In this document: positions 54,523 to 57,453 of the stretch, piece after piece
How the letters are laid out: every line of letters begins with the position of its first letter
Numbering within the stretch: position 1 is the stretch's first letter
Assembly: GCA_963719505.1 (NCBI GenBank)
Contig: CAVRCF010000001.1
Coordinates: forward strand, 1,223,754-1,287,753
DNA from: Halobacteriovoraceae bacterium
Lineage (GTDB): Bacteria > Bdellovibrionota > Bacteriovoracia > Bacteriovoracales > Bacteriovoracaceae
DNA length: 64,000 nucleotides
Direction: 5' to 3'
Position numbers and translations under genes: made by a program
The notes under the pieces: generated by a model
Database searches by the model: none
The model's input: the letters and a program-made list of their open reading frames with translations, nothing else
What the model was told of the DNA's origin: nothing

Positions 54523-54624
54523 ATGAATAAAAGAAGACTAGATTACTTAAAAGAAAAAGAAGTTTTAAAAGTTTTTATTACATGTTTGTTGTTGTTTATA
54601 AGCGCATCAATTAAATATAAATAA
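54523..54624 (+). CDS. Candidate 33-aa small membrane peptide
   Basis: AAGGAG RBS; MNKRRLDYLKEKEVLKVFITCLLLFISASIKYK. Confidence 0.45.
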   Translation: MNKRRLDYLKEKEVLKVFITCLLLFISASIKYK

Positions 54625-55765
54625 ACCTTTTAACGATAGTATCAAGAAGAAAATGTCCTCTTTTGAGGATGTTTTCTTCCCACTCTTTATCATGAGGATA
54701 AAATATTTCCTTGTAGTCCTCTCGAATTTTTTCTTTATCTTCTGGGGTTTTGTAGCCATTAAAGCGCCCTTGATTTTCCAGTATAAGTGCATTAATAGTT
54801 TTTACTTTTCCAAAAAGACCATTGCCAACAGTTCCAAACTCAGCCGTAATATTAATAATAATTTTTTCTTTTTGTGGGTTTATTAGACTGACTAGTTTTG
54901 AATAATCACCTTTAATTTCATAAAAGCCTGTCGCTCCAGGAGGTGTGTGTGAGTAGAACTCGCTCTCTTTGTTATTGAATATTTTATTGAAAACGAGTGT
55001 CGATTTCTCATTCATATTTTCTTTGCTAAGAATATGCAAGACTCCTTTATCTCCTAAGCCAGTATGGAGGTCAATATTAAAAATTTGAGAATATGGGGGC
55101 GTGATTCTTTTTAAAAGATTTGTTAGATAAAGGGTTTGCGGCTCAAATCGCCTCCCCCCAAAGTTTAAACCCTTGGGTGAAGTGTACTGTCCTTTGCCAA
55201 TCGCTTCAGTTAAAGATTGTTGAGTAACTCCCGGAGTGAAGATCATCTCTTTTATAAGGGGAATAAAAGGGAAGCTAAAGGATGTTGCCTTCTCTTTTAA
55301 TTCAAGATGGGACTTTAACTTTTGATAAGAGGTATTTTTTGTTTGAAAAAGAGAAGGATCTAGGTCGTAATTCCTGTTGAGATTTACATTGTTTTGGGTC
55401 CCCCGAACAATGTTTTGAAAACCCCAAGGGTTGTGGGCATGAATGAGTAAAACTCCAACCCTCGTAAAGTCGATAGAGGAAATGGTTTTGCTAAGAAATT
55501 GTAGTTGAAGAGCACTCCCAGCAAAGCCCTCAGGTCCATGAGTTCCTGAGGTTATAATGATGAGTTTTTCGGTCTTTTTAGCAGGAAGGTAGAAGGTGTC
55601 TAAGCTGAGACCTTTGGCTACGAGAAGTTTTCCTTTTTCTAGTTTCGGATTTAATTTTCTTAAGTTCGCTTCATAGGATAGAAATTCCTTTTTTGAAGAC
55701 TCGTAGTTTGGTTGAAAAAAGGCAAAGGCACAAAGGGGAATAAGGAATAACAGTATTTTTATCAT
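54611..55765 (-). CDS. Secreted M14-type zinc carboxypeptidase (DUF2817-like)
   Basis: SGTHGPEG (HxxE), NPWG, NLNRN, DLHTG, EFG; signal peptide. Confidence 0.85.
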   Translation of the reverse strand: MIKILLFLIPLCAFAFFQPNYESSKKEFLSYEANLRKLNPKLEKGKLLVAKGLSLDTFYLPAKKTEKLIIITSGTHGPEGFAGSALQLQFLSKTISSIDFTRVGVLLIHAHNPWGFQNIVRGTQNNVNLNRNYDLDPSLFQTKNTSYQKLKSHLELKEKATSFSFPFIPLIKEMIFTPGVTQQSLTEAIGKGQYTSPKGLNFGGRRFEPQTLYLTNLLKRITPPYSQIFNIDLHTGLGDKGVLHILSKENMNEKSTLVFNKIFNNKESEFYSHTPPGATGFYEIKGDYSKLVSLINPQKEKIIINITAEFGTVGNGLFGKVKTINALILENQGRFNGYKTPEDKEKIREDYKEIFYPHDKEWEENILKRGHFLLDTIVKRFIYI

Positions 55766-55803: not shown

Positions 55804-56325
55804 TTAAAGACATGAAATCTGTCCCTTTCCACCTCTTGATTTTTTTACGACTTTTTCGTTTAGTTGATTCTTCTTATGCTTATTACAAAGATCTTTCATT
55901 TTTAAACCATCAAAGCCTGTCTGACTAAAATTATTGTCTCTTTTGGCAATGGCCTTCGGATTGAAGTCACCATTGACTCCTGAGGATTCACCCTCATGAT
56001 AAAAGCTTTCGTTATTACCACTTGGTCTATAGGTTTCAAAGCCACCGTGTTGAGAATCCCATTCATAAACCTTGCAGTCATTGCCCAGAAATCTCTCTCT
56101 CGTCTTTCCTCCGGCACCTCTTCTGGTGAGAGGGATCATTTTTAGTTTTTTCATGAAGGGCGTGCATTTTTTTGGAAATTGAACAACGCCGTGGTCATCC
56201 CTGATGATACCGTATTTATCCCACTGGCTAACTTCACCAGAGAGCTTATCAATTTGATTTTTACACTTTGGGTTTAAAGCGTATGCACTTGAGACAAAGA
56301 GAATAAAAAGTAAACTATAGTGCAC
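55804..56325 (-). CDS. Secreted colicin E3/cloacin-type cytotoxic rRNase domain protein
   Basis: GG..R.R.....KVYEWDSQHGGFETY...H.G aligns by eye with the ColE3 C-terminal RKRWTGDKGRKIYEWDSQHGELEGY..HLG. AAGGAGG RBS then GTG at 56325; signal peptide MHYSLLFILFVSSAYA. Confidence 0.85.
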   Translation of the reverse strand: MHYSLLFILFVSSAYALNPKCKNQIDKLSGEVSQWDKYGIIRDDHGVVQFPKKCTPFMKKLKMIPLTRRGAGGKTRERFLGNDCKVYEWDSQHGGFETYRPSGNNESFYHEGESSGVNGDFNPKAIAKRDNNFSQTGFDGLKMKDLCNKHKKNQLNEKVVKKSRGGKGQISCL

Positions 56326-57421
56326 AGCCAACCTCCTTAAGTCTCTTCTCAAAATATGATTTATTTCTAGAACCAGTTATCTTATTAATAGCATCAATCG
56401 TTTTGTCGGATAGCTTCTCTAGAAGTTTGAAAGGAACTTTTAGGCCTTTGCCTAAAATGGAGGCGATCTTTTTTAACTTCAAAAGTATTCTGGTTACGCC
56501 TAATGCGAGCTTAGCCCCACCAGCACCAACGGTCACAGCTGTAATGAGAACGTCGACACCAATGCTTCCCAAAAGATTGCAAAACATCTGAGCTTTTTCA
56601 TCTGCAGGAAGAGCCGCAACTCCCTCATAGGCTTGAACAAAAAAATCTCCAATTTCACCAAATTTTTGCTTCAAGACCTTCATTCCTTCAACGGGATTGA
56701 CGAGCATATTTCCAAGTGTTTTAGCAAAGCTCCAAAGTTGTTTTGCTCCATCGCTGACAAAGCTCCAATATTCTCCAAGTCTCTTCCCCGCATCACTTTT
56801 CAATTTTGTGTACTCTGATTTTAAACCATTCCAAAAGCCCTCAACGACGCCAACGGTAGATTCTTCGGCTCCACTGAGAAGTCCACTCATGCAATTTGAA
56901 AGTATAGAGCCACTCGCATTAGCTGCTACACCTGTATCGAGGTTTAAAGAGGGATAAATATCAGGGGCCAAGCATTCTGATTGGGCATGGGCCTGATCAA
57001 TGATACTAAATGTTGATGACACTTTTATTTTGGATAAATTATTTATAATGGCCGTTCTTTCTTTATGGGAAACATCCTCAAAATAAAAAGCAACTTCTTT
57101 TCCTAAAATGACCTGATGGTACACAAAGCCTCTTCCTACCTGATAAGACTTTCCTATTTCATAATTTCCACTGACTGCGTATTTGACTGCGATCTTTGCA
57201 TTCATAAATGGATCACTGATAAAAAGATTCAGCTTTAAAAGCTTGCTTCCGTTTCTGCCTATAAAGACTGGGATGAAATTTTCTTTTTTAAAAGCATTTA
57301 AGATAGATGTCTTAACCACTAGGGGCATAGGTTCGAGTTTAAGACTATCATAGCGCGATGACTCATTTGCAATAGCCGAAAAAGCGCAGGTGAATATTAT
57401 CCATAACAGTAGTCTCATCAC
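56315..57421 (-). CDS. Secreted protein with amphipathic helices and a Gly-rich hydrophobic segment (putative toxin delivery partner)
   Basis: Signal peptide; VEGFWNGLK..YWSFVSDGAKQLWSFAK amphipathic region; LLGSIGVDVLITAVTVGAGGAKLALGV hydrophobic segment; 11-nt overlap with the toxin gene. Confidence 0.7.
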   Translation of the reverse strand: MMRLLLWIIFTCAFSAIANESSRYDSLKLEPMPLVVKTSILNAFKKENFIPVFIGRNGSKLLKLNLFISDPFMNAKIAVKYAVSGNYEIGKSYQVGRGFVYHQVILGKEVAFYFEDVSHKERTAIINNLSKIKVSSTFSIIDQAHAQSECLAPDIYPSLNLDTGVAANASGSILSNCMSGLLSGAEESTVGVVEGFWNGLKSEYTKLKSDAGKRLGEYWSFVSDGAKQLWSFAKTLGNMLVNPVEGMKVLKQKFGEIGDFFVQAYEGVAALPADEKAQMFCNLLGSIGVDVLITAVTVGAGGAKLALGVTRILLKLKKIASILGKGLKVPFKLLEKLSDKTIDAINKITGSRNKSYFEKRLKEVGCAL

Positions 57422-57426
57422 TGTAT

Positions 57427-57453
57427 TTTTCGGTATTTAGAAAGTTTATCTTA
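57427..57453 (-). promoter_or_regulatory. Putative sigma28 (FliA) promoter of the toxin operon
   Basis: TAAG-N15-ACCGAAAA, 5 nt before GTGATG; no SD. Confidence 0.55.

Follow-up and report, generated by a model that had tools for sequence, protein, structure and literature searches.

A putative two-chain toxin module with a conserved junction cysteine pair in Bdellovibrionota

A colicin is one chain; it is synthesized in the cytoplasm in complex with an immunity protein, and its release depends on a lysis protein. In diphtheria toxin, the clostridial neurotoxins and ricin, one disulfide links the catalytic chain to a binding/translocation chain, and reduction in the target cytosol breaks it; such disulfide-linked A-B chains arise by proteolytic nicking of one precursor, and their targets are eukaryotic. 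The AB5 enterotoxins (cholera and heat-labile toxins) are encoded by overlapping genes with a signal peptide for each subunit, are assembled in the periplasm through non-covalent A-B contact ahead of secretion, act on eukaryotic targets and are not polymorphic. Predatory Bdellovibrionota have been reported to be without contact-dependent injection systems, and their rapid killing of prey and access to the prey cytoplasm are poorly understood. Here, we describe a two-gene locus in a stretch of 64,000 nt from a Halobacteriovoraceae bacterium (assembly GCA_963719505.1, contig CAVRCF010000001.1, 1,223,754-1,287,753 of the forward strand), hereafter the window. The first gene encodes a secreted protein, referred to as the carrier, and the second a secreted toxin related to the ribosomal RNA nuclease (rRNase) of colicin E3.

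Polymorphic toxins have been described, in the available part of PMC3482391, as a conserved N-terminal scaffold with a fused C-terminal toxin, an immunity gene directly downstream and orphan cassettes. The MafB proteins of Neisseria are Sec-dependent polymorphic toxins with a signal peptide, a conserved N-terminal scaffold and varied C-terminal toxins, according to the sections available of PMC4287609 and PMC4436062. Furthermore, the SitA toxins of Myxococcus are Sec-exported, modular, polymorphic lipoproteins whose N-terminal part governs cell entry; the accessible text of PMC5562445 and PMC8546572 presents them as single chains that travel by outer-membrane exchange and have immunity genes. 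The literature was searched for polymorphic toxins together with Bdellovibrio, Bacteriovorax, Halobacteriovorax and Bdellovibrionota, for colicin E3 with Bacteriovorax, for Tox-HNH-EHHH and for interchain disulfides, and no description of the present layout was found; supplementary lists might hold such genes. Toxins and colicins were not mentioned in PMC11656739, nor Bdellovibrio or disulfides in the part of PMC3482391 referred to above. The result was in agreement with an earlier reading made from the letters alone (the sequence-only reading), which knew of no described system of this kind.

The features of the locus on which the argument rests are as follows.

56315..57421, minus strand: carrier gene (the "partner" of the sequence-only reading), from the list of open reading frames (ORFs), 368 aa from GTG or 367 aa from the ATG at 57418, 100% match to database protein P0001 (the 367-aa form)
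57368..57421, minus strand: predicted carrier signal peptide, residues 1-18, cleavage predicted between AIA and N, from the translation and a hydropathy window (Kyte-Doolittle, KD, 1.67 at residue 1), a heuristic call
56332-56338, minus strand: toxin Shine-Dalgarno sequence AAGGAGG, within the last carrier codons, 6 nt before the GTG
56324..56326, minus strand: codon of carrier Cys366, third residue from the C-terminus, overlapping the toxin GTG start
55804..56325, minus strand: toxin gene, colicin-E3-type rRNase with a predicted leader, 173 aa from GTG, equal to database protein P0089
56278..56325, minus strand: predicted toxin signal peptide, residues 1-16, cleavage predicted between AYA and L, homologues P0090-P0094 starting at the same position
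56263..56265, minus strand: codon of toxin Cys21, fifth residue of the predicted mature chain, an invariant column among the downstream proteins
56008..56130, minus strand: rRNase core, PF09000 match, residues 66-106, with the DSQHGGFE motif at 56035-56058

The ORFs of the carrier and the toxin overlapped by 11 nt (56315-56325). A TTG at 56352 would give a toxin of 182 aa, and the GTG was favoured over it because five toxin homologues (57-75% identity, 164-175 aa) begin at the GTG position. Sec signal peptides were called by eye and hydropathy as a hydrophobic core followed by an AxA-type site. The sequence-only reading had described a two-gene layout with a ribosome-binding site in the carrier tail, a signal peptide on the upstream protein and separate export of the two chains. 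Both ORFs, their overlap and the ribosome-binding site were recovered as described, a leader with an AxA-type site was seen in both chains under the heuristic just given, and the residue strings quoted at that time, the CNLLGSIGVDVLITAVTVGAGGAKLALGV stretch and the tail ...EVGCAL, are contained in the carrier translation. The pair had a G+C content of 39.1%, against 36.9% for the window.

The same pair was found in a metagenome-assembled genome (MAG) of the same genus, where a carrier ending in ...AVGCAI and the rRNase P0091 (62% identity) overlapped by 11 nt from the GTG and lay beside sucD, as in the window. When genome contigs were searched with a profile of a narrower carrier alignment, this MAG was the sole match. 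In addition, the metagenome carrier P0004 (56% identity) and the rRNase P0091 were on contigs that were both 31,486 nt long, probably one and the same contig. The co-occurrence of carrier and rRNase in relatives, which the sequence-only reading had put forward as a check, was thus seen in the MAG and probably on the metagenome contig.

The carrier belongs to a family that reached across the phylum. An exhaustive HMMER search of 1.84 billion representatives detected 79 relatives with E values of at most 0.001, of which 15 stayed at or below 1e-30. Carrier homologues were present by protein match in 45 of the 238 genomes of the window's order, and the family profile matched 72 of the 401 genomes sampled from the phylum; these belonged to ten families or more. 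The named sources were MAGs of Halobacteriovoraceae, Bacteriovoracaceae, Bdellovibrionaceae/Pseudobdellovibrionaceae and an 'uncultured Oligoflexia bacterium', and all of the proteins were annotated as 'hypothetical protein'. Judging from these source labels, the organism of the window may have a predatory lifestyle. The alignment of 55 members had five invariant columns, namely C150, C177, C281, G299 and C366, with Cys366 in 55/55.

Thirty distinct loci were obtained at the level of the order, and 25 of them had a complete carrier with a downstream ORF. Two were dropped at a contig end (L003 and L004), and three others (L026, L028 and L029) were long and without a separate downstream ORF. At the level of the phylum, 20 loci were divided into 8 split and 12 long ones; with the locus of the same-genus MAG (L033), the split pairs numbered 34. 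In all of these, the carrier ended in a Cys, one to three residues and the stop codon (Cys at -2 to -4), and the downstream ORF overlapped the carrier gene, started with a hydrophobic leader and had a Cys 1-17 residues after that leader. Counted from the first start codon in frame, the overlap was 4-16 nt in 33 loci and 17 nt in L033. The layout is not due to chance, since the same arrangement was found in 34/34 complete split loci of many genera.

The post-leader Cys was the sole invariant column when 25 downstream proteins were aligned with MAFFT. In the rest of the 34 toxin sequences, Cys made up 49 of 5391 residues, so that the probability of a Cys in a 17-residue stretch was about 0.14 per family and about 8e-11 for 12 families, a rough value that treats the families as independent. 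The sequence-only reading had counted an odd number of Cys in the toxin, which proved correct: the mature chain has five, and the count was odd in 33 of the 34 mature toxins. Lipoprotein leaders on the toxins were considered and ruled out, as no lipobox stood before the Cys and the Cys lay up to 17 residues past the AxA-type site. It was also our impression that in the 12 toxin families hydrophobic and acidic residues often alternate, as in a helix, over the 10-15 positions past the toxin Cys (for example CDINNIVDEV, CKKRLEKAIED, CGFIEDFKTAI). The carrier tail has a charge of +10, and the stretch may be a shared docking helix.

At most split junctions, the downstream ATG was formed by the base before the carrier Cys codon and the TG of that codon (xxA-TGY). 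Purine-rich, Shine-Dalgarno-like runs were seen by eye in the carrier tail codons of the junctions printed. Because both elements sit in the carrier tail, its last eight codons or so are doubly constrained.

The downstream proteins of the 34 loci fell into 12 families (BLAST single linkage, E below 1e-4), which answers the question raised by the sequence-only reading of whether different toxins stand behind homologues of the partner. The Pfam scan of the first 25 downstream proteins gave Tox-HNH-EHHH for five (best E 6.5e-10) and Cytotoxic for one, that of the window. The other matches among these 25 (Y_Y_Y in two; VirE2, DUF87 and SHOCT_2 in one each) were weak and looked spurious, and five more downstream proteins from phylum-level loci gave no credible Pfam match. 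Ten of the 12 families were without a Pfam domain, and for this reason the carrier gene can serve as a marker for new antibacterial toxin folds.

The toxin of the window matched PF09000 (Cytotoxic) with E 3.5e-9 and 37.3 bits (cut-off 22) over profile positions 19-59 of 80. It also matched colicin E3 chain 1e44_B with E 2.4e-6, the alignment spanning the YEWDSQHG.E motif (..YEWDSQHG.E.YR..). D90, H93 and E97, which we take from the colicin E3 literature to be the catalytic Asp, His and Glu, were invariant in 6/6 toxin homologues, as were the five Cys (C21, C54, C84, C147 and C172). The genome-wide search also recovered the toxin domain, in a single copy. By its sequence, the toxin belongs to the rRNase family of colicin E3, and cleavage of 16S rRNA in the decoding centre is predicted.

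Single-chain relatives were informative about the junction Cys pair. Among the 23 distinct long forms examined, 14 had only three core Cys (the equivalents of C150, C177 and C281) and no Cys within 140 residues past the hairpin described below, and the chain ran on into a C-terminal domain. Eleven of those 14 had no further Cys at all, and the other three (L048, L051 and L057) had one Cys 143-144 residues on, inside the C-terminal domain; that of L048 matched Gln_deamidase_2 with E 1.4e-5 and 25.6 bits (cut-off 25). P0078, which is identical to L053, had Cys388 aligned to the C366 column, then 21 residues, Cys410 and a C-terminal domain. Seven long forms had coiled-coil-like extensions with a single Cys 19-41 residues from the end, and L029 was atypical. 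The refuting case named by the sequence-only reading, a single fused ORF in homologues, did not occur in any near relative and was seen only in distant ones.

The junction pair was thus present in split chains (34/34), absent in the 14 fused forms, and found as a loop-flanking pair in one fused lineage. We favour an interchain disulfide because the pair tracks separate chains, goes when the chains are fused and closes a loop in one fused lineage. In the window, the bond would be formed between carrier Cys366 and toxin Cys21, and the pattern further suggests a scheme in which C150 would pair with C177, C281 would be free or buried, and C366 would pair with the toxin. The sequence-only reading had proposed a disulfide from the odd Cys count of the toxin and a near-terminal Cys of the partner. 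The proposal gained strong indirect support from the co-variation of the Cys in split and fused forms. The near-terminal Cys is there, but it is not alone, since the mature carrier has four family-invariant Cys (C150, C177, C281 and C366), and the argument from Cys parity calls for caution.

When a complex of carrier residues 19-368 with toxin residues 17-173 was predicted, the median score was 0.55 (runs 0.24, 0.55 and 0.58), compared with 0.02 for the best of three controls. The runs agreed in at least 57% of contacts, and the pLDDT (predicted local distance difference test) of the partner was at least 78. Of 80 solved complexes, 58 reached the mark set for this score, as did 2 of 110 mismatched pairs; only seven of those 80, and both of the passing mismatched pairs, did so with a score of 0.60 or under. 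The prediction lends weak support to a modelled carrier-toxin complex, and the multimer check that the sequence-only reading had suggested gave a weak pass.

Taken together, we consider it fairly probable that the two genes belong together as a translationally coupled module within a phylum-wide polymorphic-toxin family of Bdellovibrionota, and that their products make a disulfide-linked two-chain toxin of the AB type. The translation of the two genes would be coupled, and each chain would be exported by Sec through its own signal peptide. In the oxidising periplasm, Cys366 of the carrier would bond to Cys21 of the mature rRNase to give an AB-type heterodimer, which would be released from the producer. 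The carrier, with its alpha/beta domain and its helical domain bearing the hairpin, would supply export and/or entry into the target cell, and membrane contact would be made through the hairpin. In the target cytoplasm, the disulfide would be reduced and the freed rRNase would cut 16S rRNA as colicin E3 does, inactivating the ribosomes. Under this proposal no immunity gene would be needed, because the folded toxin would never be present in the producer cytoplasm. Membrane crossing by the carrier, periplasmic assembly and prey as the target are steps that we infer, and for carrier-mediated translocation itself we would give only a tentative judgement, on the doubtful side.

Several points weigh against the two-chain toxin. 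The complex score lay in a range that is more often wrong than right unless the guess is likely beforehand, and the toxin of L006 had an even number of Cys. An internal C281-C366 pair is possible since the mature carrier has four conserved Cys, and it would leave the toxin Cys free. In most loci, the start codon overlaps the carrier Cys codon, and the conservation of this Cys could be partly at the nucleotide level. Conservation driven purely by the start codon is disfavoured because the start register is not uniform: T-GTG serves in the window and in L005, L006 starts in an ATGA overlap two codons past the Cys, and none of these has lost the Cys. No resemblance of the helical domain to known translocation domains could be detected (its best Z, 5.6, falls under the noise level for proteins of helical type), and the hairpin, which has a conserved Asp, is of moderate hydrophobicity only. 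The heuristic way in which the signal peptides were called counts on the same side. Moreover, carriers of different toxin families share at most about 38% identity, so there is no sign of the recent cassette swapping that is typical of CdiA or Rhs. The sole clear sign of re-pairing was L021, whose carrier is nearest to carriers of T2 toxins (37% identity) yet is paired with a T1 toxin. The carrier family is modular but old.

The carrier was examined for its domains and fold, and its regions are as follows.

57032..57352, minus strand: N-terminal alpha/beta domain, residues 24-130, strands and helices in the AlphaFold2 (AF2) model, missing in short forms of 214-230 aa
56330..56926, minus strand: helical domain, residues 166-364, the conserved core of the family, from AF2 models (separate model pLDDT 78.9) and the alignment
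56492..56590, minus strand: Gly-rich hydrophobic helical hairpin, residues 278-310, with invariant C281 and G299 and a 19-residue hydropathy of 1.5-1.8

The AlphaFold2 model of the carrier, made with 55 sequences, had a pLDDT of 84.4 and a pTM (predicted template modelling score) of 0.81, and showed the leader, the alpha/beta domain, a low-confidence linker and the helical domain. The net charge was +11, with +10 in the last 63 residues. No Pfam, NCBIfam or PADLOC family was found for the carrier, and the 55 family members scanned at E up to 0.1 had no Pfam family in common. With Foldseek, the best match of the whole model was at E 0.11 (RseB C-terminal domain, 83 columns) and that of the helical domain at E 1.1. 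In the VIA fold search, the N-terminal domain reached a best Z of 5.9 and the helical domain one of 5.6; like the Foldseek values, these lie in the range stated to be noise. The best match of the family profile to PDB sequences was an apolipoprotein at E 0.016, which was not significant. Furthermore, no fold similarity to colicin pore domains, other pore formers or the diphtheria T domain was found in the searches run.

The sequence-only reading had called it established that Gly-rich hydrophobic helices of this type form a module preceding toxic domains. This could not be upheld as a link to any known family: the hidden Markov model (HMM) of PT-TG (PF14449), at E up to 10, matched another place in the genome and not the carrier, the MafB N-terminal family PF06255 gave no match, and there was no fold match. 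In a language-model search, the nearest neighbours of the carrier included a MafB cluster (0.83) and a PT-TG cluster (0.82); both values were below 0.9 and are leads only. If the two-chain toxin is right, the helical domain could, as modelled, be a new membrane-crossing module.

An alternative that we regard as unlikely, although it is the strongest of the rivals, gives the carrier the part of a periplasmic chaperone or secretion adaptor that binds non-covalently. Such a carrier would keep the diverse small toxins soluble or inactive in the periplasm of the producer, or hand them over to an export route such as type II secretion or vesicles, and stay out of the target; its Cys would serve folding or be kept through the start-codon overlap. 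The pairing of one conserved protein with 12 unrelated cargo families, the translational coupling of the genes and a helical domain unlike known translocation domains would all suit a chaperone, and so would the overlap of the Cys codon by the start codon in most loci. However, a chaperone does not predict the pattern of the junction Cys (34/34 in split pairs, absent in 14 fused forms, a loop in one lineage), and relatives that are fused to a toxin-like domain indicate that scaffold and toxin stay together.

It is rather improbable that the carrier is a membrane-damaging effector in its own right, inserting its helices or hairpin in the target membrane, in an operon of two effectors that form no complex. 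A helical bundle with a hydrophobic Gly-rich hairpin, the strongly basic character of the carrier (net +11) and an apolipoprotein as best, though non-significant, PDB profile match (E 0.016) are in line with such an effector. It would leave the invariant Cys pair and the fused forms unexplained, the searches run found no fold resembling the colicin pore domains or other pore formers, and the complex prediction was above its controls, though weakly.

The surroundings of the toxin genes bear on a further alternative, in which the carrier is the missing protection. No immunity gene was found next to the toxin in the window, where the gap to the next gene is 38 nt and leaves no room for an ORF, nor in the locus of the same-genus MAG, where the next gene encodes a fibrinogen-domain lipoprotein. 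The Cloacin_immun profile (PF03513) had no match in the 83.5%-complete genome; this negative is weak because the control genomes gave no match either. Immunity candidates were seen only beside the five Tox-HNH-EHHH loci (L013, L014, L015, L018 and L020), as a leaderless ORF of 133-135 aa (152 aa from the first start codon of L018). The candidate of L014 lies at 546-947 on the minus strand and had no Pfam match, and a secreted protein of 172-191 aa was seen after the candidates of these HNH loci. In six other loci, the ORFs behind the toxins had no immunity-type Pfam match, and no orphan toxin cassettes were seen.

That the carrier is itself a periplasmic immunity protein or toxin inhibitor is very unlikely. 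It is adjacent to the toxin and co-translated with it, and no other candidate stands nearby; but such proteins are specific to one toxin fold, while one carrier family precedes 12 unrelated families, and the carrier is upstream of the toxin, is larger than it and has relatives fused to toxins. The last alternative, that the split is an artefact of sequencing error or that the frames are joined in translation by a programmed frameshift, draws on the overlapping frames and the single chains of distant relatives, and we rejected both forms of it as scarcely credible: the split recurs in 34/34 loci of many genomes, every downstream ORF there starts at a codon of its own and has a hydrophobic leader, purine-rich runs stand ahead of the starts in the printed junctions, the length and frame of the overlap vary (4, 10, 11, 13 and 16 nt) with no common slippery site visible, and the database gene call is the identical 173-aa protein.

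Beyond the disulfide-linked module, a wider picture is possible rather than probable, in which Bdellovibrio-like bacteria share a phylum-wide and hitherto undescribed class of antibacterial AB toxins, built from two coupled genes, separate export and one periplasmic disulfide. The hairpin would move nucleases, deamidases and other toxins across the inner membrane of invaded prey, and the split, Cys-loop-Cys and Cys-free chains would be three evolutionary states of one machine. No immunity gene would be needed because the intact outer membrane of the producer would keep the complex from its own inner membrane. If true, predatory Bdellovibrionota would have a concrete killing device in two-chain toxins that leave by Sec and bear interchangeable warheads, and the polymorphic toxins would gain a new architecture in which modularity comes from disulfide-paired genes instead of domain fusion.

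Some further observations were made on the long relatives. The coiled-coil class (P0072, P0074, P0075, P0080, P0083, L045 and L050) had an Ala/Lys/Glu-rich extension and a short hydrophobic end stretch with the Cys, and P0072 showed a lipobox-like LAGC. The fused forms L046, L052 and L054 had in common a C-terminal domain (about 200 aa) that matched nothing in Pfam and has the conserved stretch HPDGGMVR.KP.GDA...RPQPHASKSVRYP; it is probably an undescribed toxin domain. The hairpin module was also seen inside secreted proteins of 1,319-1,419 aa without a Pfam domain (L034, 3760-8019; L035, 3495-7454; L036, 1975-5940), which may be giant single-chain relatives.

In the window, the gene that follows the toxin after 38 nt (54611-55765, minus strand) encodes a secreted protein of the DUF2817 type (E 8.9e-62) that weakly resembles murein peptide amidases of the MpaA type; it is not kept at this place in the same-genus MAG. 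The promoter scan of the locus was no better than shuffles, and the terminator scan gave nothing useful on the minus strand. In a sediment metagenome run that contained 0.06 of the sampled words, two short contigs (151 and 172 nt) were 95-99% identical to the toxin-gene parts 55810-55975 and 56088-56238, and none crossed 56315-56325. This identity indicates that a close relative of the toxin gene is present in that sample.

Compared with colicin E3 and cloacin DF13, the toxin of the window has the same PF09000 toxic domain with the YEWDSQHG.E motif, and the overall plan would also be shared, with a carrier region for receptor binding and translocation beside a small cytotoxic domain. Unlike in the colicins, toxin and carrier are separate genes with a signal peptide on each and no adjacent immunity gene, and the carrier was unrelated to the colicin T and R domains in all searches run. 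With MafB, as the available sections of its papers describe it, the system shares a signal peptide, a conserved scaffold and alternative toxin domains. The MafB-type toxins are, by the same sections, single chains with a downstream immunity gene, whereas in the window a second gene encodes the toxin, which has a leader to itself and a conserved Cys. Of the polymorphic-toxin traits, a conserved N-terminal scaffold with many alternative toxin domains was found, in the form of 12 families and the fused forms. A toxin at the C-terminus of the same polypeptide was not seen in the 34 split loci and occurred only in distant relatives. As proposed, the system would work in the manner of a polymorphic toxin and of the disulfide-linked A-B toxins. 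Set against the description in the available part of PMC3482391, the system of the window departs from the classical picture in two traits, the fusion of toxin to scaffold and the adjacent immunity gene.

The likeness to SitA, within what the accessible text on SitA covers, is that of Sec-exported, modular and polymorphic toxins; unlike SitA, the leaders have no lipobox and the toxin is on a separate chain. The two-gene, two-leader layout is like that of the AB5 toxins, but nothing in the carrier points to a pentameric B subunit. P0078, with its two Cys around a 21-residue loop, resembles the nicked-loop precursor of toxins of the diphtheria, clostridial and ricin type. In contrast to those toxins, the two chains of the window come from separate genes with a predicted export signal each, and the toxin domains belong to antibacterial types.

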